IMG/VR virus record: IMGVR_UViG_2563366819_000005
Reading direction: 5' to 3' (one strand)
Source: a virus
Taxonomy: Duplodnaviria; Heunggongvirae; Uroviricota; Caudoviricetes
DNA: 40,880 bases
The notes beneath the pieces are model-generated. The model was not told the DNA's origin, made no database searches, and saw only the letters and a program-made list of their open reading frames with translations. Position numbers and translations under genes: made by a program. Of the stretch, positions 11,804-26,360 are shown one piece after another; within the stretch, counting starts at the first letter, position 1, and each line of letters starts with the position of its first letter.

Positions 11804-11823
11804 AAAGCCTCCTAGGAGGCTTT
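11804..11823. terminator. 20-bp perfect palindrome AAAGCCTCCTAGGAGGCTTT; candidate bidirectional terminator between convergent genes
   Basis: Perfect inverted repeat flanked by A/T-rich sequence. Contains the stop codon of the methyltransferase gene. Confidence 0.4.
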
Positions 11824-12852
11824 GATTATATTAAGCAAATGTTTTCCAATCGTTTCAGACATCTTCGGAGGGACCGCATTTCCTATTTGACGAGCCCGAG
11901 ATTGCAAAGAACCAATAAATTTATAATCCAAAGGAAATGTTTGTAGACACGCTGCTTCACGAACCGATATTGCTCGATTTTGTGTTGGATGTCCAAAACG
12001 TCCATTTGAATAGCTAATACAACGAGTTGTTAGTCCGCTGGCTGGTTTGTCCCAACTCAAACGTCCATATACGTCTGTATGCCCTTTATGGTTACGATGG
12101 CATTCTAAAATCAATTCATCTGGCCAAAATTCTCGACTTCCACCTTCAGGAGTGCATTTTATTCTACGTAAATTAAGCTCTGATAAGCGTGCAGCTTCAT
12201 GATCAGGAATACTATTATGCTTTTCTCCTGCTTCTATCTTCGGTAAATTAGCGATCCAGTCCTTTACTGTTGAATAGGGAGTATTTCCAACCCCATGTGT
12301 AGGAGAAGGCAATGCGACATAAAAATCCTTGGATGCAATGAGCACTAATCTTTCTCGCGTCTGTGGTACACCGTACCACGCAGCTGGCATTACTTTATAA
12401 TCTACACTATATCCCTTTGATGAAAGCATTTCTAAAAACATCATGAATGTTCCTTCATTTTTGTTAAACTTTTGCATTCCTGGCACGTTTTCAACAAAAA
12501 TAAAATCAGGCATATAATGCTCTACAAAGCGACTGAATTCCTTTAATAGATCTAATCGTGGATCATCATTTTTCTTATTTGAGTTTTGCTTAGAGTACGG
12601 TTGACAAGGCGCACATCCTGAAAAAAGAATGTAATCATTACGATGTTTTTTTACTAACTTGTTTATGGCATTGTTGTCGATTAACCTAATGTCCGAGTTA
12701 ATAAAAGCAGCCTGCGGGAAATTTGCACGAAATGAACTGGCTGCATCAACGTCGAAATCGAGGCCAAAAACAATATCCATTCCAGCTTGATGGAAACCTT
12801 GGCTGGTTCCACCACAACCGGAAAAGAAGTCAAACACTTTGATTTTTTTCAT
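11812..12852 (-). CDS. DNA (cytosine-5)-methyltransferase (346 aa from ATG at 12852)
   Basis: C5-MTase motifs in order: FDFFSGCGG (motif I), GCAPCQPYS (motif IV PCQ, catalytic Cys), FVENVPGM (motif VI ENV), QTRERLVLIA (motif VIII), GNAVPP (motif X). GAGGG SD before the ATG. Confidence 0.85.
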   Translation of the reverse strand: MKKIKVFDFFSGCGGTSQGFHQAGMDIVFGLDFDVDAASSFRANFPQAAFINSDIRLIDNNAINKLVKKHRNDYILFSGCAPCQPYSKQNSNKKNDDPRLDLLKEFSRFVEHYMPDFIFVENVPGMQKFNKNEGTFMMFLEMLSSKGYSVDYKVMPAAWYGVPQTRERLVLIASKDFYVALPSPTHGVGNTPYSTVKDWIANLPKIEAGEKHNSIPDHEAARLSELNLRRIKCTPEGGSREFWPDELILECHRNHKGHTDVYGRLSWDKPASGLTTRCISYSNGRFGHPTQNRAISVREAACLQTFPLDYKFIGSLQSRARQIGNAVPPKMSETIGKHLLNIIKAS

Positions 12853-12875
12853 TTTTCCCTCTGCATCCAGAATCA

Positions 12876-14705
12876 CTACCTAATGATACCACGGTCAAGA
12901 GCCTGAGTAATTATTTTTCTTATTTTTATAAATTCAGGCAATTCATTTTTAAGTCTTGCGGTCATCATTTGTTGGAGGCAAAAAATTTCCTCTGCATTTA
13001 CTTCTTCTTTATCATACAGGTGTTGCGCTAATAATCTTATTTGATTCTTATACAGTTCTGGATCATTAGAACTCCAGGTCTGTGAATCAATTATTTCTTT
13101 TTCACTTGGCGTAATTGCCTTTTCAATGAGTAATTGTTCGGGAGTATCAAATGGTAAATACTGCACTTTATTGAATGCATACTCAAGCACTTGCCTTTTG
13201 AGTCTATTAGATTCTTGTTCATTTTTTTTGCCATTACTACCACTGGCATTGATAATTAACTCGCAACCATAATATTTGCACATTGTATTAACTAAATCAG
13301 CATCAGCAATTTCACTAATTCTTACTGGTTTTATTTTTTTGTTTTTATCACCATCAAGTAAAAACAAAATATCATTGCGTTCTACCACAGCGTAACTGGG
13401 AAGATGCTTGCTTAAAATGGTCTCCGAACCACCTGGTATATAACTTACACTAAATGATAAGCTTAATCTTTCATCATTTTTAATCGCTTTATCTATAATT
13501 GCTTTAGCTAATTTATCTTCTACAATTATTGTTTTCTTGTTAATATCATGCCCTAGCTCTATAAAAGCTTCATCCGGTGCTATATTTTGAACTATTTTAG
13601 CTGTTTCACTCTCTTCATCAAAAACAAATAATTTAATGGCATCTTTGGGAAGAGTGTTCACAATAACAGGAGAATGGGTTGATATTACCACTTGATGTTT
13701 TTTCTGCTCAACAATAGAGTACAGAACATCCATCATCCTTTTTTGTGCACCAGGGTGAAGTGAAACTTCTGGTTCGTCAAGAAGAATTAATGAATTAGGT
13801 TTGGCCGAATAAATATTGAGTATTAGTGAAACTATTGCAAATTCACCACTTCCAGCAAACGCTTCTGTATAGTTCAACTTATCAGTTGAAAGTAAAGCGG
13901 TTCCTCCTCTGGTTCCAAATAACCGATGCTCAAGAAATTTAATGACTTTATATTTTTTCCCTAATATAAATGAGACGTGCTCAACTAGTTCTGGCGCCAA
14001 GGTTATATTTTTAACAATGGTTTCCGCCCCCCAGAGTCTTAAATTACTTAGCTTTTCATCAAAAGCTTTCTTTATATATTTAGATTTGCTTCTGATATAG
14101 TCTTGCTTTGTAATTAATACACCACTCTTCTTCTTTCTTAATTTAAAATCAGAGTGATACATACATCTATCAAATGCACTTATTTCCGATCTGAAATCTA
14201 GGAAAACCAATCCCTTCTTGATTTTTTTCCATCTGGTTGCATTACTATTAGCACCCAGATCATCCGAAATACTCTCCATGTTATCACCAACAGATGGTCG
14301 ACTTGTTTCCCAATAATCGATTGTTTTCTTGGTAGCATTGATACGTGCTTGGAGTATTTCAACTAAACGGCCATCAGCATTTTTATATCCATATATATAT
14401 CTAGGTTTAAGAGAACTGCCATCAGCAAGTTTTAGGTCAGGAAACTCATCTGTTTCAGTTGTGAACCAATAACGAGTTATATTTTTACCATGTGGGCAAC
14501 CAAATAGCGCTTTGATAACAGAACTTTTATTAGTTCCATTTTTTCCTACTAAAGCCGTTATAGGGAACTGAAAATCGATCCTTGCATTCTGCTCTATATT
14601 TTTAAAGTATGGAAAACGGATATGTTGTATGAATGGTTCAAATTCACCGTTTTTTAACGCGCACTGGAGTGTTCGAATTTTGCTCTTGTATGCGGAAGTG
14701 CTCAT
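12876..14705 (-). CDS. OLD-family-like protein: N-terminal ABC-type ATPase plus putative C-terminal TOPRIM nuclease domain (609 aa)
   Basis: P-loop ALVGKNGTNKSS (GxNGxxKS type as in RecF/OLD), Walker B SLILLDEPEVSLHP, H-loop ISTHSP. C-terminal IIVEDKLAKAII followed about 55 aa later by LFLLDGDKN, resembling the TOPRIM Glu and DxD motifs. Visibly AT-rich. Confidence 0.65.
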   Translation of the reverse strand: MSTSAYKSKIRTLQCALKNGEFEPFIQHIRFPYFKNIEQNARIDFQFPITALVGKNGTNKSSVIKALFGCPHGKNITRYWFTTETDEFPDLKLADGSSLKPRYIYGYKNADGRLVEILQARINATKKTIDYWETSRPSVGDNMESISDDLGANSNATRWKKIKKGLVFLDFRSEISAFDRCMYHSDFKLRKKKSGVLITKQDYIRSKSKYIKKAFDEKLSNLRLWGAETIVKNITLAPELVEHVSFILGKKYKVIKFLEHRLFGTRGGTALLSTDKLNYTEAFAGSGEFAIVSLILNIYSAKPNSLILLDEPEVSLHPGAQKRMMDVLYSIVEQKKHQVVISTHSPVIVNTLPKDAIKLFVFDEESETAKIVQNIAPDEAFIELGHDINKKTIIVEDKLAKAIIDKAIKNDERLSLSFSVSYIPGGSETILSKHLPSYAVVERNDILFLLDGDKNKKIKPVRISEIADADLVNTMCKYYGCELIINASGSNGKKNEQESNRLKRQVLEYAFNKVQYLPFDTPEQLLIEKAITPSEKEIIDSQTWSSNDPELYKNQIRLLAQHLYDKEEVNAEEIFCLQQMMTARLKNELPEFIKIRKIITQALDRGIIR

Positions 14706-17944: not shown

Positions 17945-18373
17945 ATGGGTTTTCGTAGCGCATCAATTCTTACGTTGATTATTAGTGGGATTATTATCGG
18001 GTGCACTGATGCTGTATCGACAAATTATCATGACCGTACATCATATTACTCCGATAAAGCAATAGAGACACAGTATGTGAGTTCATCTGAACGTACTTCT
18101 GATGTTAGGGAGGATATCCGTCTGTATGCCCATCAAATCAAGAGCGCCATCGAAAAACAGTTCGGGGATGCGAGTAAGTATTCAGGAAAAGAGTGTACAC
18201 TGAGAATGCATATGGCCCCGAATGGCCTTCTACTGGAGGTTAAAAGAGAAAGTGGAGACCTCGATTTATGTCGTGAAGCGATGAATGCGATAAAGAATGC
18301 TGATATACCTGCCCCCCCTTCGCCGGAAGTATATAAAGTATTTCAAAATGGGGTGCTGGATTTTAAACCCTGA
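17945..18373 (+). CDS. Putative lipoprotein moron 1 (142 aa)
   Basis: Signal peptide with lipobox (IIIGC). C-terminal domain is paralogous to the next gene. AT-rich. Confidence 0.6.
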   Translation: MGFRSASILTLIISGIIIGCTDAVSTNYHDRTSYYSDKAIETQYVSSSERTSDVREDIRLYAHQIKSAIEKQFGDASKYSGKECTLRMHMAPNGLLLEVKRESGDLDLCREAMNAIKNADIPAPPSPEVYKVFQNGVLDFKP

Positions 18374-18523: not shown

Positions 18524-18919
18524 GTGGGATTAAAGAAAATCGTTATGTTGACTTTTTGGGTCGGTTTTGTTGCGGGATGCACACCTTTACACCCTTCAGA
18601 TTGCCACAAAACTACTGCTACAGGTAGTTGCAGTTCAGGACGCTGGGATGATCAGGATGAATGGGGGGCGCAAGCGCGGGGAATCAGAGCTGCAATTAAT
18701 GCCAAACTTGATGAGCCGCATAACTGGAAAGGGAAAAAATGCAGGTTGCATATGGAATTCTCTCAGGATGGCACGGCGTTAAAAATATCTACCAGTAACG
18801 GTGATAAAGCCTATTGCGAAGCGATAAAGTCCGCAGCTCATAAAGCCAAATTTCCGGCCTTCAACAATCCGGAAGTCTACAGAGATTTTCAGAAATCTGG
18901 CTTTGACATGCGAGGTTAG
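18524..18919 (+). CDS. Putative lipoprotein moron 2 (131 aa), paralogue of 17945-18373
   Basis: Lipobox FVAGC. C-terminus KKCRLHMEFSQDG...NNPEVYRDFQKSGFDM aligns with ECTLRMHMAPNG...PSPEVYKVFQNGVLDF of the upstream gene. Confidence 0.6.
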   Translation: MGLKKIVMLTFWVGFVAGCTPLHPSDCHKTTATGSCSSGRWDDQDEWGAQARGIRAAINAKLDEPHNWKGKKCRLHMEFSQDGTALKISTSNGDKAYCEAIKSAAHKAKFPAFNNPEVYRDFQKSGFDMRG

Positions 18920-20344: not shown

Positions 20345-20481
20345 AATCTTAACTACAATATGATTCATTTTGATGATTGTTTCATAAGGAACAGTGAAGT
20401 AAGATCTAAGAGGAGTTAAATTTTATACAGTATAATCATAATATTGCAGCAAGGTGGTTATAATTGAAAGAATATTTAGAT

Positions 20482-21939
20482 ATGAATACATCTCATGTAA
20501 GAGTTGTTACTCATATGTGTGGGTTCCTGGTTTGGCTCTATAGTCTTTCAATGTTGCCACCAATGGTTGTAGCATTGTTTTATAAAGAAAAAAGCCTGTT
20601 CGTTTTCTTTATAACTTTCGTTATATTTTTTTGCATTGGTGGCGGAGCGTGGTATACAACTAAGAAATCTGGCATTCAATTACGTACCCGTGATGGGTTT
20701 ATTATAATTGTAATGTTTTGGATTTTGTTTTCTGTTATTAGTGCATTCCCTTTATGGATTGACTCAGAACTTAATTTAACGTTCATTGATGCTCTGTTTG
20801 AAGGGGTTTCTGGAATAACAACAACAGGAGCAACTGTAATTGATGATGTTAGTTCATTACCTCGGGCATATTTGTACTATCGGTCACAGTTAAATTTTAT
20901 AGGTGGTTTAGGAGTTATTGTTCTGGCGGTTGCTGTATTGCCATTATTGGGTATTGGTGGTGCAAAGCTTTATCAGTCAGAAATGCCGGGGCCATTTAAG
21001 GATGACAAACTCACTCCCCGCCTGGCCGATACGTCACGGACACTGTGGATAACTTATTCTTTATTAGGTATTGCTTGTATTGTCTGTTATAGACTTGCAG
21101 GAATGCCTTTGTTTGATGCTATTTGTCACGGGATTTCCACAGTTTCGCTTGGTGGTTTCTCAACTCATAGCGAGAGTATCGGATATTTTAATAACTATTT
21201 GGTTGAGCTGGTGGCTGGTTCTTTTTCCCTGCTATCGGCTTTCAACTTCACTCTTTGGTATATTGTTATTAGCAGGAAAACGATAAAACCTTTAATCAGA
21301 GATATTGAACTTCGTTTCTTTCTGTTAATAGCCTTAGGGGTGATCATTGTTACCTCTTTCCAGGTCTGGCATATAGGTATGTATGACTTGCATGGAAGTT
21401 TTATTCATTCGTTTTTTCTTGCCAGCTCCATGCTCACTGATAATGGTTTAGCTACGCAGGATTATGCAAGTTGGCCCACGCACACGATAGTGTTTTTGCT
21501 GTTGTCAAGTTTCTTTGGGGGATGTATAGGTTCAACTTGTGGTGGAATTAAGTCACTTCGATTTCTTATACTTTTAAAACAAAGCAAACACGAGATAAAT
21601 CAGCTTTCTCATCCCAGAGCGTTGTTGAGTGTAAATGTAGGAGGGAAGATAGTTACAGATCGTGTAATGAGGTCTGTATGGAGTTTCTTTTTTCTTTATA
21701 CTCTCTTCACGGTGTTTTTTATACTGGTGTTAAATGGTATGGGATATGATTTTCTTACATCATTTGCAACAGTGGCTGCATGTATTAATAATATGGGATT
21801 AGGTTTTGGGGCTACTGCATCGTCATTCGGAGTGCTTAATGACATTGCAAAATGTTTAATGTGCATAGCTATGATTCTTGGTCGCCTTGAAATTTATCCT
21901 GTTATTATATTGTTTTCAGGTTTTTTTTGGCGCTCCTAA
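20482..21939 (+). CDS. trkG: TrkG potassium uptake protein (485 aa), prophage moron
   Basis: Multi-pass membrane protein beginning MNTSHVRVVTHMCGFLVWLYSLSMLPP. AT-rich, and immediately after the lysis genes as in Rac. Confidence 0.9.
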   Translation: MNTSHVRVVTHMCGFLVWLYSLSMLPPMVVALFYKEKSLFVFFITFVIFFCIGGGAWYTTKKSGIQLRTRDGFIIIVMFWILFSVISAFPLWIDSELNLTFIDALFEGVSGITTTGATVIDDVSSLPRAYLYYRSQLNFIGGLGVIVLAVAVLPLLGIGGAKLYQSEMPGPFKDDKLTPRLADTSRTLWITYSLLGIACIVCYRLAGMPLFDAICHGISTVSLGGFSTHSESIGYFNNYLVELVAGSFSLLSAFNFTLWYIVISRKTIKPLIRDIELRFFLLIALGVIIVTSFQVWHIGMYDLHGSFIHSFFLASSMLTDNGLATQDYASWPTHTIVFLLLSSFFGGCIGSTCGGIKSLRFLILLKQSKHEINQLSHPRALLSVNVGGKIVTDRVMRSVWSFFFLYTLFTVFFILVLNGMGYDFLTSFATVAACINNMGLGFGATASSFGVLNDIAKCLMCIAMILGRLEIYPVIILFSGFFWRS

Positions 21940-22025
21940 TATATGGCTGATTTATAATTGTGAGTTTAATATTATGTTGACTCACTCATTGATCCAATAC
22001 CTAACTTTACCAGCAACCCCTCCGT

Positions 22026-22058
22026 CCCCAGTAGCACTGGCTGCTGGGGTGCGTTTTA
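22026..22058 (+). terminator. Candidate intrinsic terminator downstream of trkG (CCCCAGTAGC-ACTG-GCTGCTGGGG, then T-rich)
   Basis: 10-bp stem with one G-U pair, followed by TGCGTTTTATT. Confidence 0.35.
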
Positions 22059-22076: not shown

Positions 22077-22868
22077 ATGAGCGAGAAATTAAAGATAGTC
22101 TATCGCCCATTACAAGAATTGTCACCGTATGCGCACAACGCCAGGACGCACAGCCCTGAGCAGGTGGCACAACTGGTAGAAAGTATTAAGCAATTCGGCT
22201 GGACTAATCCGGTGCTGATTGACGAAAAGGGCGAAATTATTGCGGGTCACGGTCGTGTTATGGCGGCTGAAATGCTCAAAATGGATTCTGTTCCGGTCAT
22301 TGTTCTGTCTGGCCTGACGGATGAGCAGAAAAAGGCGTACCGCCTGGCAGATAATCGCCTGCCGATGAATGCTGGCTGGGATGAAGATCTGTTGCGGATG
22401 GAGCTGTCGGACCTAATCAATGCTGATTTTGATGTCTCCCTGACAGGCTTCATCCCGACAGAAATTGATGAACTGTTGACGGATGTTTTGCCCGGTACAG
22501 GAAATGAGGAGGAGCCGTATACGACGAAAATTGATACGCCTGTTTATGAGCCGTCGGGCGGTAAACCGGATATCAGTGAACTGTACGACGATACGAAAAC
22601 TCAGGAGCTGATCAGCCGGATACGTTCGGCGTCCCTTGAGCCTGATATTGAGAAATTCCTCCTGTGTGCGGCAGAACGTCACACGGTGTTTAATTTCAGC
22701 AGAATTGCGGACTATTACGCTCACGCCCCCTCTGAAATTCAGTGTTTTTTCGAGGAGTCGGCGCTGGTGATCATTGATTATCAGCAGGCTATTGAAAATG
22801 GATTTGTCCGGATGACGCAGCGCATGGTGGAGATCATGCATGGTGGTGAGGAGGAGGAATATGCGTGA
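22077..22868 (+). CDS. ParB N-terminal-domain (ParB/Srx-like) nuclease-domain protein, 263 aa
   Basis: Motif VLIDEKGEIIAGHGRVMAA matches the ParB/Srx signature (IAG-[EH]-[RG]-R). Located upstream of the packaging genes. Confidence 0.7.
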   Translation: MSEKLKIVYRPLQELSPYAHNARTHSPEQVAQLVESIKQFGWTNPVLIDEKGEIIAGHGRVMAAEMLKMDSVPVIVLSGLTDEQKKAYRLADNRLPMNAGWDEDLLRMELSDLINADFDVSLTGFIPTEIDELLTDVLPGTGNEEEPYTTKIDTPVYEPSGGKPDISELYDDTKTQELISRIRSASLEPDIEKFLLCAAERHTVFNFSRIADYYAHAPSEIQCFFEESALVIIDYQQAIENGFVRMTQRMVEIMHGGEEEEYA

Positions 22869-23793
22869 TGATTTTTGCGCCTTTATTCTGACTCACGGGC
22901 GACCGGACAAAGTTCTGACTTACCGGACGTTGCGTCGTGCTGGCTATACCGGGAAAATTTTTATCGTTGTTGATGATGAAGATAAGACACGGAATCAGTA
23001 CATGGCTGAATTTGGTGAACAGGTGCTGGTGTTTTCCAAAGCCGATATCGCCAGTCGTTTTGACGAAGCCGATAATTTCTGTGACCGCCGCTCAATTTTT
23101 TACGCCCGTAATGCCTGTTTCGACCTGGCAAAACTGGTCGGGTGTAAATACTTCATTCAGCTCGATGATGATTATCACGAGTTCCAGTTTCGGGTGGATC
23201 GCAACTATGACCAGGCCTATTTTCCGATAAGGAAACTGGATGCGATCCTTTCTGAAATGCTGGCGTACTACGAATCAATACCTGCTCTTTCCATCGCTAT
23301 GTCGCAGGGCGGGGATTTTCTTGGTGACAATGGCGGCCATGCTTCGTGGGTGAAACGCAAGGCAATGAACAGCTTTATCTGTTCGGTTGATCGACCGTTC
23401 TCATTCATGGGGCGCATTAACGAGGATGTGAATACGTACACGAATCTCGGTCGCTGTGGTGAATTGTTTATGACGATCGGTGCTGTCCAGTTAGGGCAGA
23501 AACAGACGCAGAAAAACAGCGGCGGAATGACCGAGCTGTATCTGGATTCCGGAACCTACGTTAAAAGTTTTTACTCCGTCATGTATGCGCCGTCGTGCGT
23601 AAAAATCTCACTGATGGGTGCCAGCCATAAACGCATTCACCATCAGGTCACCTGGAACAACGCTGCAGTAAAAATCCTTCACGAAAAATACAGGAAGAAG
23701 ACACCCTGCATATCAATGGGGGTGACAAATGATTCCGTATTCGAAAGTCGAGTCTCTGGCAGCGTGCCGGATGACTGCACAACAAATCGCTGA
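22861..23793 (+). CDS. Hypothetical protein with a DxD-type motif (FIQLDDDYHEF); possible GT-A-like transferase
   Basis: GGAGGAGG SD before the ATG at 22861. Overlaps the ParB-like gene by 8 nt. Function not recognised. Confidence 0.45.
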   Translation: MRDDFCAFILTHGRPDKVLTYRTLRRAGYTGKIFIVVDDEDKTRNQYMAEFGEQVLVFSKADIASRFDEADNFCDRRSIFYARNACFDLAKLVGCKYFIQLDDDYHEFQFRVDRNYDQAYFPIRKLDAILSEMLAYYESIPALSIAMSQGGDFLGDNGGHASWVKRKAMNSFICSVDRPFSFMGRINEDVNTYTNLGRCGELFMTIGAVQLGQKQTQKNSGGMTELYLDSGTYVKSFYSVMYAPSCVKISLMGASHKRIHHQVTWNNAAVKILHEKYRKKTPCISMGVTNDSVFESRVSGSVPDDCTTNR

Positions 23794-23980
23794 CGTTCTG
23801 GATGTTGATCTGAACCGACTGAAAGAAAATCGGGAAGCAATGACAGATTTTTATGCGGCCATCCGTAAGGGCAGAGCGAAAGGTGAAGCCGAGTTACGAG
23901 CGGCATTGTTTAAGCTTGCCAGAAAAGGGGATGCCTTTGCTCTGCGCGAACTACTCAGGGTGGATAAAAATCAGGACTAA
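23729..23980 (+). CDS. Small HTH-like protein upstream of terminase (83 aa)
   Basis: GGGGTG SD 5 nt before the ATG at 23729. Helix-rich; MTAQQIADVLDVDLNRL resembles an HTH. Confidence 0.4.
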   Translation: MIPYSKVESLAACRMTAQQIADVLDVDLNRLKENREAMTDFYAAIRKGRAKGEAELRAALFKLARKGDAFALRELLRVDKNQD

Positions 23981-23983
23981 CTG

Positions 23984-25078
23984 ATGAGCAGACCGGACTG
24001 GGGGGCGTTGCAGCAGGAGTATATTGCTGAATACACCCGCTCCGGTATATCTCCGGTGGCATGGTGTGAAGCAAGGGGACTGAATTACGCAACAGCCCGT
24101 CGTTACATCAAAAAAACTCCGAAAAATGCGCAGACAGAAATGTGCAAAACTGCGCAAAAAAGTGCGCAGAAAAAATCTGCGCAGACTGCACAAAAGCGGA
24201 ACGAAAAATCTCAGGAAAAAAAGCCAGTATTCGATGCGGGCCTGAATGAGGGCGACGCGGAGGAATTTTCGTTCTGTCCCGATGAATTCGGCATTTCTGA
24301 CCAGCAGGCTAAGTTTGCGATGCTTGTTGCTCAGGGTAAAAAGCCGACAGAGGCGTACCGACTAGCCGGTTATGAGGGGCAAGGTGCGACAGCTAACAGC
24401 AACGCCAGTCGTATGCTTAGAAATGCCAGGGTTTTTCGCGCTATCAGCTACTTCCGCAATCAGTACCAGAAACGCTATACCGCAGACCTGGATTTACTAG
24501 TGAGTCAGTTGATGGCTATTGTCCTGGCCGACCCCAATCAGCTTGCACAATTTCGCCGTGTTAACTGCCGTTATTGCTGGGGCGAGAATCATCTCTACCA
24601 GTGGCGCGATATAGCAGAATTCGACAAGGCAGCGGCGCAGGCTTCCAGAGATGGCAAACCCGAACCGGAATATGGAGGCCTCGGCTTTGTTGATAACGCC
24701 ATACCCAATCCGGACTGCCCGAAGTGCTGCGGTGAGGGAACGGGACAGCTTTATATGGCTGATACCACTCTGCTTGATGGGGATGCGCGGCAATTATATG
24801 CAGGGGCAAAATTCGGAAAATTCGGCGTTGAGATCCTGCTGGAGGATAAGGCTGCCGCCCGGCGTGAATTGTTGCGTTTGTTTTCTGCTGGCGGGGCTTT
24901 ATGTGCAGATAAACGGCTACAGGAACTGGAAATTGAACGGCGCAGAATGGAAAACCAGAAGCTGCGCAAAGAGATCGAAACGGTGGAAGATAATGAACAT
25001 CCCCAGCCTGTGGCGATCAATATTAATGTGGTTGATGCCAGAGTAAGGAGTGATGAAGATGATCTCTCCGACGCTTAA
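23984..25078 (+). CDS. Terminase small subunit (364 aa)
   Basis: Central segment AKFAMLVAQGKKPTEAYRLAGY...NASRMLRNARV is typical of TerS proteins. Cys-rich C-terminal region. Immediately upstream of TerL. Confidence 0.7.
   Translation: MSRPDWGALQQEYIAEYTRSGISPVAWCEARGLNYATARRYIKKTPKNAQTEMCKTAQKSAQKKSAQTAQKRNEKSQEKKPVFDAGLNEGDAEEFSFCPDEFGISDQQAKFAMLVAQGKKPTEAYRLAGYEGQGATANSNASRMLRNARVFRAISYFRNQYQKRYTADLDLLVSQLMAIVLADPNQLAQFRRVNCRYCWGENHLYQWRDIAEFDKAAAQASRDGKPEPEYGGLGFVDNAIPNPDCPKCCGEGTGQLYMADTTLLDGDARQLYAGAKFGKFGVEILLEDKAAARRELLRLFSAGGALCADKRLQELEIERRRMENQKLRKEIETVEDNEHPQPVAININVVDARVRSDEDDLSDA
24124..24197 (+). repeat. Six TG(C/T)GCA-centred direct repeats at 9-15 bp spacing inside terS; candidate pac/TerS recognition site
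   Basis: aaaTGCGCAgac, aaaTGTGCAaaac, aacTGCGCAaaaa, aagTGCGCAgaaa, atcTGCGCAgact, gacTGCACAaaag. Encodes the repetitive peptide AQKSAQKKSAQTAQK. Confidence 0.35.
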
Positions 25079-26360
25079 TGTGCCTCAGGCGCGATTTCTT
25101 TCAATGCCCCATAAATTTAAAGCCTATATTGCTGGTTTTGGCTCGGGCAAAACATGGGTTGGGTGTGGCGGCATATGCAAGGGGATTTGGGAGCATCCAG
25201 GTATAAATCAGGGATATTTTGCGCCAACGTATCCCCAAATTCGCGATATTTTTTACCCTACAGTGGAAGAAGTTGCTGCTGACTGGGGATTGAACGTAAA
25301 AATTAATGAGGGAAATAAAGAGGTTCACTTTTATTACGGACGCCAGTATCGGGGAACCACTATCTGCAGATCGATGGAGAAGCCACAAACGATCGTCGGT
25401 TTCAAAATTGGTAATGCGTTGGTGGATGAACTGGACATTTTGCCGAAGGAAAAAGCCAGAACGGCGTGGCGCAAGATAATTGCACGTATGCGTTATAAGA
25501 TTGATGGACTTCGCAACGGTATTGACGTTACAACCACGCCGGAAGGATTCAAATTTGTCTACGAGCAGTTTGTTAAAGCCGTGCGTGAAAAAACAGAGCT
25601 GGCCTCACTGTATGGTCTGGTGCAGGCATCTACTTTCGATAATGAAAAGAACCTGCCAGCAGATTACATTCCTTCGCTTCTTGAATCATACCCTCCAGAG
25701 CTGATTAAAGCCTATCTTCGAGGACAGTTTACTAACCTGACAAGTGGTACTGTTTACCATCAGTTTGACCGGAAACTGAATAATTGCGAAGAAGTGGAGC
25801 AGCCAGGGGAGCCGATTTATATTGGGATGGATTTTAACGTTGGAAAGATGGCGGGAATCGTCCATGTGCTGCGTTTGGGGCTTCCATGTGCGGTAACTGA
25901 AATCATCAATGCCTACGATACGCCGGATATGATCCGCATCATTAAAGAACGCTTCTGGCTGTATGATGGGAATGATTACCGGAAAGTGAGGGAAATTTAT
26001 ATTTATCCAGATGCTTCCGGGGATTCCAGAAAATCAAGTAACGCAAGTACGACGGATATAGCCCAGCTTAAGCAGGCTGGATTTAACGTTGTGGTGAACA
26101 GCTCGAACCCGCCAGTAAAAGATCGCGTTAACTCAATGAATGCAATGTTCTGCAATGCCAATGGTGAGCGTCGCTATAAAGTTAATGTGAAGCGTTGCCC
26201 GTTATATGCCGAATCTCTGGAGCAACAGGTCTGGGATGAGAAGGGGGAGCCTGATAAAAAATCTGGCAATGATCACCCGAATGATGCCGGAGGTTATTTC
26301 ATCGTTAAGCAATTCCCTATTGTCAAACCGACCGGAAGAGTCACATCACTTCGGATTTAA
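25053..26360 (+). CDS. Terminase large subunit (ATPase plus nuclease)
   Basis: Walker A YIAGFGSGKT near the N-terminus. AAGGAG SD upstream. Size and position follow TerS. Confidence 0.85.
   Translation: MKMISPTLNVPQARFLSMPHKFKAYIAGFGSGKTWVGCGGICKGIWEHPGINQGYFAPTYPQIRDIFYPTVEEVAADWGLNVKINEGNKEVHFYYGRQYRGTTICRSMEKPQTIVGFKIGNALVDELDILPKEKARTAWRKIIARMRYKIDGLRNGIDVTTTPEGFKFVYEQFVKAVREKTELASLYGLVQASTFDNEKNLPADYIPSLLESYPPELIKAYLRGQFTNLTSGTVYHQFDRKLNNCEEVEQPGEPIYIGMDFNVGKMAGIVHVLRLGLPCAVTEIINAYDTPDMIRIIKERFWLYDGNDYRKVREIYIYPDASGDSRKSSNASTTDIAQLKQAGFNVVVNSSNPPVKDRVNSMNAMFCNANGERRYKVNVKRCPLYAESLEQQVWDEKGEPDKKSGNDHPNDAGGYFIVKQFPIVKPTGRVTSLRI

Follow-up and report, generated by a model that had tools for sequence, protein, structure and literature searches.

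Described systems closest to the locus

A phage operon that joins a DNA-modifying enzyme to a ParB-like protein has been described in the 5mYOX176/ParB176 system (O'Toole et al. 2026, PMC13229309), in which the dioxygenase depends on ParB to act on double-stranded DNA and the C-terminus of ParB176 has been modelled against a C-terminal extension of that enzyme. The gene pair studied here (genes A and B of the window, that is, of the whole stretch of 40,880 nucleotides of viral DNA that was analyzed) is probably such an operon as well. Set against the published description of architecture and boxes, gene A resembles the ParB176 type: in both, an NTP-binding domain is followed by a short helical segment, then a disordered linker and finally a C-terminal domain; neither has a DNA-binding domain, and both replace Gln with Asn in Box I and the catalytic Glu with His in Box II (the ParB176 type also with Asp). 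Terminase genes are frequent neighbors of both. In contrast to ParB176, which is partnered by a dioxygenase, gene A has a TAGT glycosyltransferase for its partner at all loci examined and no dioxygenase was found; the dioxygenase clade that is linked to glycosyltransferases is the one without ParB (PMC13229309). Furthermore, both domains are required in ParB176, whereas gene A-type proteins conserve a linear motif and the C-terminal domain and frequently have no ParB domain, and the linker described as non-conserved in the ParB176 type carries a nearly invariant motif in gene A.

Gene B falls within the TAGT/JGT family (PF20691), which includes the kinetoplastid base-J glucosyltransferase, the T6-type beta-glucosyl-HMC alpha-glucosyltransferase, and 5mYOX-associated phage GT-A enzymes. 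Like these members, it has a GT-A fold and an R...DDD...ED signature and is phage encoded among genes of DNA metabolism; unlike them, it has no hydroxymethyl-pyrimidine source or first glucosyltransferase found alongside, and it has an extra basic C-terminal extension and an obligate partner protein. In 2013, Iyer et al. reportedly defined TAGT and suggested a role for ParB in directing modification enzymes at the time of packaging. In ParB-methyltransferase fusions (phrog_498; PDLC03229; Kaljevic et al. 2025, PMC12704722), which are enriched in prophages, a ParB domain closely related to that of gene A ties the ParB fold to post-replicative DNA modification. In these fusions the methyltransferase is part of the same chain, whereas in gene A the ParB domain sits on a non-catalytic adaptor and the glycosyltransferase has a separate, overlapping gene. 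The animal O-GlcNAc transferase GREB1 also has a TAGT-type GT-A domain in common with gene B, but it is a large eukaryotic protein that acts on a nuclear receptor, and gene B bears no sign of a protein acceptor. Finally, gene A shares the ParB NTP-binding fold with the CTP-gated clamps KorB-KorA and chromosomal ParB/Noc, which are the source of the idea that a ParB clamp prolongs the stay of its partner on DNA. Unlike these clamps, it has no HTH, parS recognition, ParA-binding motif, or ParA gene, carries His in place of the Glu of GERR, and is acidic as a whole protein.

The gene pair in its late operon

The pair comes from a Rac-like Escherichia coli prophage, and both of its genes are late. 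The features of the locus are as follows.

22026..22049, + strand: terminator-like hairpin, then a T-run, 3' of the trkG-like moron; 10-pair stem with 7 GC pairs, followed by TGCGTTTTAT
22077..22868, + strand: gene A, partner protein (RefSeq ynaK), 263 aa; ParB/Srx N-terminal domain, disordered linker, conserved C-terminal domain
22077..22481, + strand: ParB/Srx NTP-binding fold and short helical segment of gene A, residues 1-135 (Pfam ParB_N, profile matches, Foldseek, AF2)
22518..22553, + strand: linear motif Y148-T-T-K151-I-D-T-P155-V-Y157-E-P159 of gene A, inside the linker predicted to be disordered
22572..22865, + strand: acidic helical C-terminal domain of gene A, residues 166-263, net charge -12
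22850..22857, + strand: Shine-Dalgarno-like GGAGGAGG within the 3' end of gene A
22861..23793, + strand: gene B, TAGT-family GT-A glycosyltransferase (RefSeq "GREB1-related protein"), 310 aa
23461..23715, + strand: basic, highly conserved C-terminal region of gene B, residues 201-285, pI 9.7
23729..23980, + strand: 83-aa ORF, part of a small-terminase PHROG (phrog_309, 8.3e-23); context, outside the module
23984-25078, + strand: small terminase gene, 364 aa, Terminase_2; downstream context
25050-26360, + strand: large terminase gene, Terminase_6N and Terminase_6C; downstream context

The hairpin is the upstream boundary of the module, and promoter-like sites between it and gene A do not exceed chance (4 found against 3.5 expected). 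Two details of the junction given in an earlier note on this DNA were confirmed: the end of gene A and the start of gene B overlap by 8 nt (22861-22868), and gene B has a Shine-Dalgarno. The latter ends 3 nt before the ATG at 22861. An in-frame ATG is also present further upstream, at 22840 in the ORF list; the start at 22861 is supported because the homologues all begin at MRDDFC. The position of the Shine-Dalgarno, together with the overlap, suggests that translation of gene B is coupled to that of gene A. The same note had placed the pair just before the small terminase gene. The pair does lie upstream of the terminase genes, but not directly adjacent to them, as the 83-aa ORF intervenes; this ORF shares 65 nt with the unconserved 3' tail of gene B, and Pantoea prophages have an 85-aa gene in the equivalent position. 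A search for parS-, pac-, or cos-like repeats at genes A and B returned short, chance-level repeats only. The single notable repeat of the region lies inside the small terminase gene.

Conservation of the pair and properties of its two proteins

All 247 loci that were found through the TAGT gene and had enough upstream sequence carry a same-strand ORF with the C-terminal domain directly upstream, and 13 loci first flagged as having no adjacent partner all proved to be distance-threshold artifacts or tandem TAGT genes. Conversely, every evaluable locus found through the C-terminal domain (78 of 78) has a same-strand TAGT gene within 2.5 kb, directly downstream in 70 cases. Overlap at the junction recurs in 150 of 164 non-redundant homologous pairs (about 91%), with 8 nt the commonest length. 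The suggestion that the pair might not be conserved as a unit therefore fails, as both genes occur in every evaluable related locus. Hosts of the pair span Proteobacteria, Firmicutes, Actinobacteria, Bacteroidota, and haloarchaea, and carriers include E. coli and Pantoea prophages, Lactobacillus phages c5 and phi jlb1, Nocardia phage NTR1, a Porphyromonas phage, and the haloarchaeal virus HHTV-2, whose TAGT proteins are 27 to 47% identical to gene B of the window. At least 80% of the pair is present at high identity in 889 complete E. coli genomes, roughly one in six. The isolated Lactobacillus phages LL-Ku, Ld17, and Ld25A have only fragments of the TAGT gene or have lost most of it, and our literature search found no DNA-modification data for isolated phages with the pair.

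The neighbors of the module at the examined loci are always packaging or replication genes. In temperate siphophages with unrelated terminase types, terminase genes follow the pair immediately. Many larger phages encode the linear motif and C-terminal domain alone, beside DNA polymerase and sliding-clamp genes; neighbors of these ParB-less versions include DNA polymerase A (12 ORFs) and the beta clamp (5), as well as clamp loader, primase, DnaB, RecA, DNA methylase, and large terminase genes. In the reciprocal survey through the C-terminal domain, the ParB domain was missing from 37 of 70 partners.

By its sequence, gene B is predicted to encode a GT-A nucleotide-sugar transferase that is intact, depends on a metal, and belongs to the TAGT/JGT family. 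Its product matches Pfam TAGT (PF20691, TET-associated glycosyltransferase) over residues 8-222 (121.1 bits against a cutoff of 27.5; E = 7.6e-35) and phrog_842 (1.1e-103), and it has the GT-A fold, a metal-binding DxD, and the R...DDD...ED active-site signature, a motif reported for DNA GT-A enzymes and JGT (bioRxiv 10.1101/2023.12.21.572611). The earlier note had allowed for an unrelated fold in this protein; the fold found is clear and related (GT-A, Pfam TAGT). It had also picked out a candidate DxD in FIQLDDDYHEF (residues 98-108). This motif is real and not due to chance, because all 44 homologues compared, which come from viruses of five host phyla, retain D102-D103-D104 (nt 23164-23172), as they do R14 (nt 22900-22902), K167, D189, and H260-H261; E188-D189 (nt 23422-23427) completes the catalytic signature. 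Residues 201-285 are modelled with low confidence when the chain is folded alone, and from about residue 223 they extend past the end of the Pfam domain. In the haloarchaeal virus homologue the equivalent region is still basic (pI 9.5), the rest of the protein having a pI of 4.2. This region may be the surface that contacts the acidic partner, DNA, or both. Searches for PDB sequence relatives of the TAGT protein and for matches in the PADLOC defense library found none, and the T-even enzyme is a distant structural match only (1.5e-5) that was not recovered by tblastn with TAGT.

The ParB/Srx signature IIAGHGR noted earlier in gene A (residues 54-60, nt 22236-22256) holds up, with Pfam ParB_N (PF02195) above its cutoff (28.9 bits against 26.3). 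Further support comes from PHROG 620, "ParB-like partition protein" (8.5e-91), from profile matches to Noc, ParB, and Spo0J (4e-12), and from Foldseek matches to ParB-CDP, Noc, KorB, and Srx (8qa9, 6sdk, and 7nfu among the structural matches). In the AF2 model, pLDDT is about 72 to 92 through residue 90, 59 to 87 beyond, and below 50 at residues 137-159, and the model contains no HTH or other DNA-binding domain. The boxes are N21 (Box I), G57-H58-G59-R60 (Box II; nt 22245-22256), and D92-N93 (Box III), all invariant in the enterobacterial set; across phyla, N21, G57, and N93 remain invariant and D92 nearly so, and Box II varies (GHGR, GHTR, GNxx), with GGNMR and GGNHR in divergent partners. 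The closest relatives of this domain are the N-termini of ParB-methyltransferase fusions (phrog_498, 1.2e-50; PDLC03229, 2.2e-38); gene A covers no more than positions 31-171 of the 633 in the former profile and 13-151 of the 436 in the latter. Pfam detects no methyltransferase domain in gene A, and in the PADLOC library gene A matches the ParB part of one methyltransferase model only. An identity as a chromosome- or plasmid-partition ParB was considered and rejected: TIGR00180 scores 38.5 bits, below its cutoff of 58.45, there is no HTH, His replaces the Glu of GERR, no parS-like repeats are present, and the N-terminus MSEKLKIVYRPL contains no LG[KR]GL (ParA-binding) motif. No ParA family match occurred among the scanned window ORFs.

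The remainder of gene A is the more constant part. Its linear motif is nearly invariant across host phyla and is kept in partners that have no ParB domain, and a phmmer search with residues 145-263 retrieved 1180 cluster representatives at E<=1e-3. For the C-terminal domain, Pfam returned sub-threshold noise only and the PDB no sequence match. Among the best 150 of the 1180 representatives there were no natural fusions of the C-terminal domain to TAGT, the longer proteins being tandem ParB domains or carrying unrelated tails. Judging by this conservation, the constant partner of this TAGT clade is the linear motif plus the acidic C-terminal domain, not the ParB domain, and together they are a previously undescribed partner element. 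The stress that the earlier note laid on ParB was therefore misplaced, because the obligate partner element is the C-terminal domain.

Acceptor and function of the pair

To our knowledge, sugar-decorated DNA always derives from a hydroxymethylated (recently also hydroxylated) pyrimidine, as in T-even phages, base J, and TET-linked phage pathways; all characterized TAGT-family members that we know of need a hydroxyl acceptor, and we know of no precedent for glycosylation of a canonical DNA base by a TAGT-type enzyme. Gene B showed no genomic association with an acceptor-making enzyme (TET/JBP, ThyS-like, or a first glucosyltransferase). No TET/JBP or thymidylate-synthase-like hydroxymethylase is present in the 40.9-kb window, the annotation of the complete phage c5 genome (31.8 kb) includes none, and in the flanks of related loci (about 5 kb in the large phage contigs with the ParB-less module) neither TET/JBP nor a hydroxymethylase appears in the Pfam calls or among the 25 top-ranked families in either of two scans, of 76 and of 105 ORFs. 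As no 5-hydroxymethyl-pyrimidine enzyme was found with the module, the sugar acceptor must therefore differ from the one usual for the family, a canonical base being one candidate. About 65% of the viral contigs that carry glycosyltransferases of this kind likewise have no adjoining acceptor-making enzyme, which was left unexplained, and contigs with no 5mYOX or ThyS neighbor were rated less obviously DNA-hypermodifying (bioRxiv 10.1101/2023.12.21.572611).

We put at about even the chance that genes A and B encode two subunits of one late-expressed glycosyltransferase, most likely acting on phage DNA. Gene A is, as far as gene order and sequence conservation indicate, the dedicated partner of the gene B enzyme. 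Its acidic C-terminal domain and motif may dock on the basic C-terminal region of gene B, whose final part is specific to the partner-linked TAGT subfamily. The charges of the two proteins are complementary (pI 4.5 for gene A and 4.0 to 4.8 for partners in all phyla, against about 9.5 for TAGT residues 201-285), the halophilic virus included, and the conserved regions of both proteins give low-confidence models when folded singly. The ParB domains would dimerize on NTP binding and either keep the enzyme on double-stranded DNA or activate it there, as a ParB-like protein does for a subclass of phage thymine dioxygenases. Newly replicated genomes could then be glycosylated before or during packaging, and the glycosylated phage DNA may be shielded from host nucleases in the next infection. 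A bolder proposal, which we advance only tentatively as a serious minority possibility, is that the sugar is put directly on a canonical base of double-stranded DNA as an N- or O-glycoside, with no hydroxymethyl handle, the C-terminal-domain protein being an obligatory activator and the ParB NTPase an optional loader.

Alternatively, the TAGT enzyme might transfer sugar to a protein hydroxyl, which we consider unlikely. The acceptor could be the Y-[T/S]-x-K...P-x-Y-E-P motif of the partner itself, in the manner of glycogenin or GREB1, or a co-made terminase, portal, or replisome component. The TAGT-family relative GREB1 does O-GlcNAcylate a protein (PMC7968844), a disordered linker that is kept with the C-terminal domain after loss of ParB contains the conserved residues Tyr148, Thr/Ser149, and Tyr157, and the failure to find a hydroxymethyl-base source also speaks for a protein. 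However, a docking peptide would be just as likely to show such conservation within a disordered linker, and ParB domains of the gene A type are otherwise fused to DNA methyltransferases. Moreover, the module always stands in a DNA replication or packaging context, and both proteins remain 38 to 47% identical across enterobacterial, lactobacillar, actinobacterial, and haloarchaeal viruses, which points to a universal substrate. It is improbable that hydroxymethyl-pyrimidine DNA is instead supplied from elsewhere, by a superinfecting T-even-like phage (with prophage defense or a sugar-extending activity as the role of the enzyme), by rare oxidized bases, or by distant genes in large phages, where only the 5-kb flank mentioned above was covered. 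Characterized TAGT members all use 5hmC, 5hmU, or a sugar already on them, and an anti-phage role of prophage glycosyltransferases has been suggested. But the genes belong to a late operon, a terminator-like hairpin precedes them, and promoter-like sites do not exceed chance, so that expression in the lysogen is not expected. The module also occurs in phages with no annotated integrase in the regions examined, such as c5, and in HHTV-2, which is reported to lack a replicase; E. coli itself, as far as we know, does not synthesize hydroxymethyl-pyrimidines.

DNA modification and packaging-site recognition had both been put forward for the pair in the earlier note. The former is now the better supported, through membership of gene B in TAGT/JGT, the ParB relatives in DNA-methyltransferase fusions, and the packaging and replication neighbors; the latter found no support. 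A packaging accessory, in which the ParB-like protein marks or recognizes the packaging start for terminase and the glycosyltransferase is secondary, would fit the terminase genes immediately 3' of the pair in hundreds of loci, the start of the pair 90 nt past the cos site in phage c5, and the lack of an annotated small-terminase gene between the pair and the large terminase gene in Nocardia phage NTR1. We nevertheless hold it to be highly improbable: the partner is acidic (pI 4.5) with no HTH or DNA-binding domain in its model, no parS- or pac-like repeats lie at the two genes, and where the ParB domain is absent (37 of 70 partners) the module stands beside DNA polymerase; the module is also met with far from terminase genes. 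The TAGT gene is broken or largely gone in isolated phages LL-Ku, Ld17, and Ld25A and is therefore not essential for packaging, and the invariant catalytic residues of gene B imply that transferase activity is what selection preserves. That the pair is decaying, non-functional prophage cargo has next to no probability. E. coli K-12 does retain only fragments (ynaK and ydaY), and truncated copies occur in many E. coli genomes, but both ORFs in the window are full length with all invariant residues present, most of the pair persists in the 889 genomes counted above, and conservation across host phyla indicates purifying selection.

Genes A and B thus offer a concrete and experimentally easy E. 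coli example of the unexplained class of glycosyltransferases with no acceptor-making neighbor, and the analysis pinpoints the actual coupling partner of the enzyme as an acidic domain with a linear motif, as opposed to the ParB fold. With a protein as its acceptor, the module would represent the equivalent of GREB1 in prokaryotic viruses. With DNA as its acceptor, the known chemistry of DNA modification would expand, ParB-like activators of DNA-modifying enzymes would extend to a second enzyme class, and temperate phages may possess a new anti-restriction mechanism. Direct glycosylation of canonical bases, if it occurs, would amount to a new class of DNA modification, carried by Rac-like prophages in about one-sixth of complete E. 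coli genomes and by viruses from five or more prokaryotic phyla, archaea included.

Prophage setting and gene layout

A Rac-like lambdoid prophage of Escherichia coli makes up the window. It encodes an integrase, RecT/RecE, SieB, and a DnaC-like loader and has a repressor region; its minus strand holds an insert with a C5-methylase and an ATPase. Then come, in order, a Q-like antiterminator, the lysis cassette, a transporter resembling trkG, and the gene pair (genes A and B), with terminase, portal, head, and tail genes behind it. The features concerned are as follows.

11812-14705 (-): C5-cytosine DNA methylase (354 aa) abutting an ABC/OLD-type ATPase (609 aa), both on the opposite strand as an insert in the early region
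17945-18373 and 18524-18919 (+): two adjoining ORFs, each containing the C-terminal domain of TolA (3.1e-23 and 1.3e-14), just 5' of the lysis genes
20464-22049 (+): TrkH/TrkG-type potassium transporter gene (491 aa, 1.5e-144), separating the lysis cassette from gene A
22077-22868 (+): gene A, 263 aa
22861-23793 (+): gene B, 310 aa
23729-23980 (+): 83-aa ORF, 65 nt of which are overlapped by the unconserved tail of gene B
24109-24185 (+): direct repeats in the small terminase gene, toward its 5' end

The potassium transporter gene, to which a terminator-like hairpin at 22026-22049 belongs, is a classic moron comparable to trkG of the K-12 Rac prophage. The methylase of the minus-strand insert matches DruM and type II methylase models, and the ATPase matches PADLOC HEC-04 (1.7e-34) as well as ATPase-Toprim, AriA, and PtuA models; the insert looks like a defense or restriction-like moron.

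E. coli carries many near-identical copies of the pair, among them the one in the window. At least 80% of the 1,717-nt pair stretch is present in 889 of 5,426 complete E. coli genomes, and several induced E. coli prophages carry it at 100% identity. RefSeq names gene A ynaK ("ParB/Srx family N-terminal domain-containing protein") and gene B a "GREB1-related protein" or "hypothetical protein." In E. coli K-12 the pair is reduced to two fragments, ynaK and ydaY, with the first ~254 nt of gene A (the K-12 ynaK, equivalent to window 22077-22330) joined to ydaY. Overexpression of this truncated ynaK raised the MIC for six unrelated antibiotics in a 2026 screen (PMC12924614).

The earlier note correctly described a ParB/Srx signature in gene A (IIAGHGR, residues 54 to 60), an 8-nt overlap with gene B, and a Shine-Dalgarno sequence, GGAGGAGG, ahead of the gene B start at 22861. 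This start, rather than an in-frame ATG further upstream at 22840, is supported by the homologues, which all begin at MRDDFC. The pair does lie upstream of the small terminase gene (364 aa), as had been claimed, but the 83-aa ORF intervenes. This ORF aligns with the central part of a small-terminase PHROG (8.3e-23), and Pantoea prophages have a free-standing 85-aa counterpart; two genes may therefore share the small terminase function. Within the small terminase gene, a direct repeat of ~15 nt (AAAAA..TGCGCAGA) occurs three times (24120, 24156, and 24171), inside a 31-nt duplicated unit in a lysine/glutamine-rich coding stretch. Packaging (pac) sites are often located in small terminase genes; these repeats could be such a site or merely a coding repeat.

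A glycosyltransferase and its acidic partner

Gene B encodes a member of the TET-associated glycosyltransferase family of Pfam (TAGT), at 121 bits against a cut-off of 27.5, and so lacks the unrelated fold that the earlier note had named as evidence against its reading. It also matches PHROG 842 (beta-glucosyl-HMC alpha-glucosyltransferase; 1.1e-103), and a search against viral models returned TAGT-domain proteins at 2e-24 and, distantly, the T-even-type second glucosyltransferase at 1.5e-5. Across 44 aligned sequences, including homologues from Lactobacillus, Nocardia, Porphyromonas, Vibrio, and Haloarcula viruses, the residues R14, R83, D102-D104, K167, D189, and H260-H261 are invariant. These residues correspond to the R...DDD...ED signature of phage GT-A DNA glycosyltransferases and trypanosome JGT (bioRxiv 10.1101/2023.12.21.572611). 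The candidate DxD motif noticed previously (FIQLDDDYHEF, residues 98 to 108) is therefore real, and, judged from its sequence, the enzyme looks catalytically intact. Residues ~223 to 285, beyond the Pfam domain, are as conserved as the core and were modeled with low confidence when folded alone. All lineages keep residues 201 to 285 basic, and the haloarchaeal virus is no exception: its equivalent region has a pI of 9.5 against 4.2 for the rest of the sequence.

Gene A begins with a ParB/Srx NTP-binding domain and a short helical segment (residues 1 to 135), which matched Pfam ParB_N, the Noc, ParB, and Spo0J profiles (4e-12), and, in Foldseek, ParB-CDP, Noc, KorB-KorA, PadC, and sulfiredoxin. 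Box I contains Asn21 and Box III Asp92-Asn93, while Box II reads GHGR, with His replacing the catalytic Glu of GERR. Gene A has neither an HTH domain nor a ParA-binding motif, and no ParA gene was found among the scanned ORFs of the window. Residues 137 to 165 are predicted to be disordered and hold a nearly invariant motif, Y-[T/S]-x-K-I-x-x-P-x-Y-E-P; residues 166 to 255 form a helical domain modeled with moderate confidence. The whole protein is acidic (pI 4.5, net charge -25), as are its homologues (pI 4.0 to 4.8). The closest relatives of its ParB domain are the N termini of ParB-DNA-methyltransferase fusions (phrog_498, 1.2e-50; PADLOC PDLC03229, 2.2e-38), an architecture typical of prophages (2025 survey, PMC12704722). 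One metagenomic homologue (P0268, 433 aa) has two tandem ParB domains ahead of the motif and C-terminal domain.

Conservation of the pair and the optional ParB domain

The two genes form an ancient, tightly coupled unit. In a survey of 254 TAGT loci from Pfam-annotated contigs, GenBank phages, and IMG/VR, a stringent script placed a same-strand partner ORF directly upstream of TAGT in 234; in 7 TAGT lay at a contig edge, and inspection of coordinates showed the remaining 13 to be threshold artifacts or tandem TAGT genes. The earlier note had held that a pair not conserved as a unit would count against it; the partner is present at 247 of 247 evaluable loci. A reciprocal survey, begun from the C-terminal domain of gene A (residues 166 to 263), retrieved 79 new loci, with TAGT directly downstream in 70, on the same strand directly upstream or 0.7 to 2.5 kb downstream in 8, and a contig edge in 1. 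Partner and TAGT genes overlap at 150 of 164 nonredundant junctions, most commonly by 8, 11, or 4 nt. Carriers include E. coli and Pantoea prophages, Lactobacillus phages c5 and phi jlb1, Nocardia phage NTR1, a Porphyromonas phage, and haloarchaeal virus HHTV-2 (TAGT identity to gene B, 27 to 47%; partner identity, 25 to 42%). The terminases downstream come from unrelated families (Terminase_2/6N, Terminase_4/TerL_ATPase, and others); the module therefore moves as a cassette. In the isolated Lactobacillus delbrueckii phages LL-Ku, Ld17, and Ld25A (search matches H54 to H61), the TAGT gene is split or largely missing and the ParB-like gene is kept, so the module seems dispensable for laboratory growth.

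The constant partner of TAGT is not the ParB domain. In Vibrio phage pv27 and many metagenomic contigs (up to ~190 kb), the gene upstream of TAGT comprises just the linear motif and C-terminal domain, in about 120 to 150 aa; such ParB-less proteins make up 37 of 70 partners in the reciprocal survey. Their modules adjoin DNA polymerase A (12 of 105 neighboring ORFs), the beta sliding clamp (5), and genes for clamp loader, primase, DnaB, RecA, DNA methylases, and large terminase. As a query, the C-terminal domain alone retrieved 1,180 cluster representatives at 50% identity, in which it almost always forms the C terminus of proteins of ~250 to 300 aa or stands alone; no Pfam family or PDB relative was found for it. 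Sixteen loci of the reciprocal survey have two TAGT ORFs, as in known two-sugar pathways, which suggests a two-sugar product. Two TAGT genes also occur in loci L184, L189, L190, and L194; at L190:1703-7961, DNA polymerase A is followed by a methyltransferase, a divergent TAGT, a protein made of the motif and C-terminal domain, a second TAGT, and the beta sliding clamp. The GmrSD N-terminal domain (DUF262) is related to the ParB/Srx fold, and a 275-aa ORF upstream of a ParB-less partner (L186:4238-5062), with a weak, subthreshold match to it (5.4e-4), may represent a ParB-like domain that has a gene of its own.

Acceptor and proposed mechanism

The acceptors used by characterized family members are 5hmC, 5hmU, or a sugar that these bases already bear (bioRxiv 10.1101/2023.12.21.572611). 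No TET/JBP dioxygenase or thymidylate-synthase-like hydroxymethylase was found within the 40.9-kb window. Neither enzyme was found in the Pfam-annotated flanks of related loci, among the 25 top-ranking families of 76 upstream ORFs from 24 loci, among the 25 top-ranking families of 105 ORFs around ParB-less modules, or in the annotation of the complete 31.8-kb phage c5 genome. The prophage C5-methylase (11812-12876) would yield 5mC, not a hydroxyl, and was not seen next to the pair in other annotated loci. The GT-A survey left unexplained ~65% of glycosyltransferase contigs, which had no acceptor-making neighbor (bioRxiv 10.1101/2023.12.21.572611). That the enzyme acts on hydroxymethylated DNA supplied from elsewhere appears very unlikely, and a canonical base as acceptor is a tentative proposal that we hold to be possible but doubtful.

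Context suggests DNA as the substrate, through the family chemistry, the methyltransferase-fused ParB relatives, the replisome and terminase neighbors, and the high conservation between bacterial and archaeal viruses, and we put the chance that the pair is a DNA-directed two-subunit glycosyltransferase at about even. The main alternative, improbable in our estimate, is protein glycosylation, for which GREB1 offers a precedent and whose target would be the conserved Tyr/Thr motif of the partner or another late protein. Of the two roles offered in the earlier note, DNA modification is favored, and packaging-site recognition is weakened to a very low probability: gene A is acidic and has no DNA-binding domain, the ParB domain is dispensable, and replisome-linked versions of the module exist. 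Least probable is that the pair is decaying cargo.

TAGT and ParB are described families, and the general idea of ParB acting with modification enzymes is already known; Iyer and colleagues reportedly proposed in 2013 that ParB directs such enzymes. In the literature searched, we found no account of this TAGT clade being obligately paired with a C-terminal-domain protein that is itself undescribed, of a ParB domain that is optional in the partner, or of the systematic absence of an acceptor-making enzyme beside the pair. The closest precedent for a mechanism comes from phage thymine dioxygenases, one subclass of which needs a ParB-like protein in order to act on double-stranded DNA (2026, PMC13229309). 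The C terminus of that protein was modeled against a C-terminal extension of the enzyme, and gene A shares its architecture and its Box I and Box II substitutions. For a DNA-directed glycosyltransferase, we propose that gene A, through its acidic motif and C-terminal domain, would bind the basic C-terminal region of TAGT, and that the ParB domain, where present, would keep the enzyme on DNA through NTP-gated dimerization. Acting late in infection, the complex could add sugars to replicated phage DNA ahead of packaging or while it proceeds, which may protect this DNA from host nucleases.
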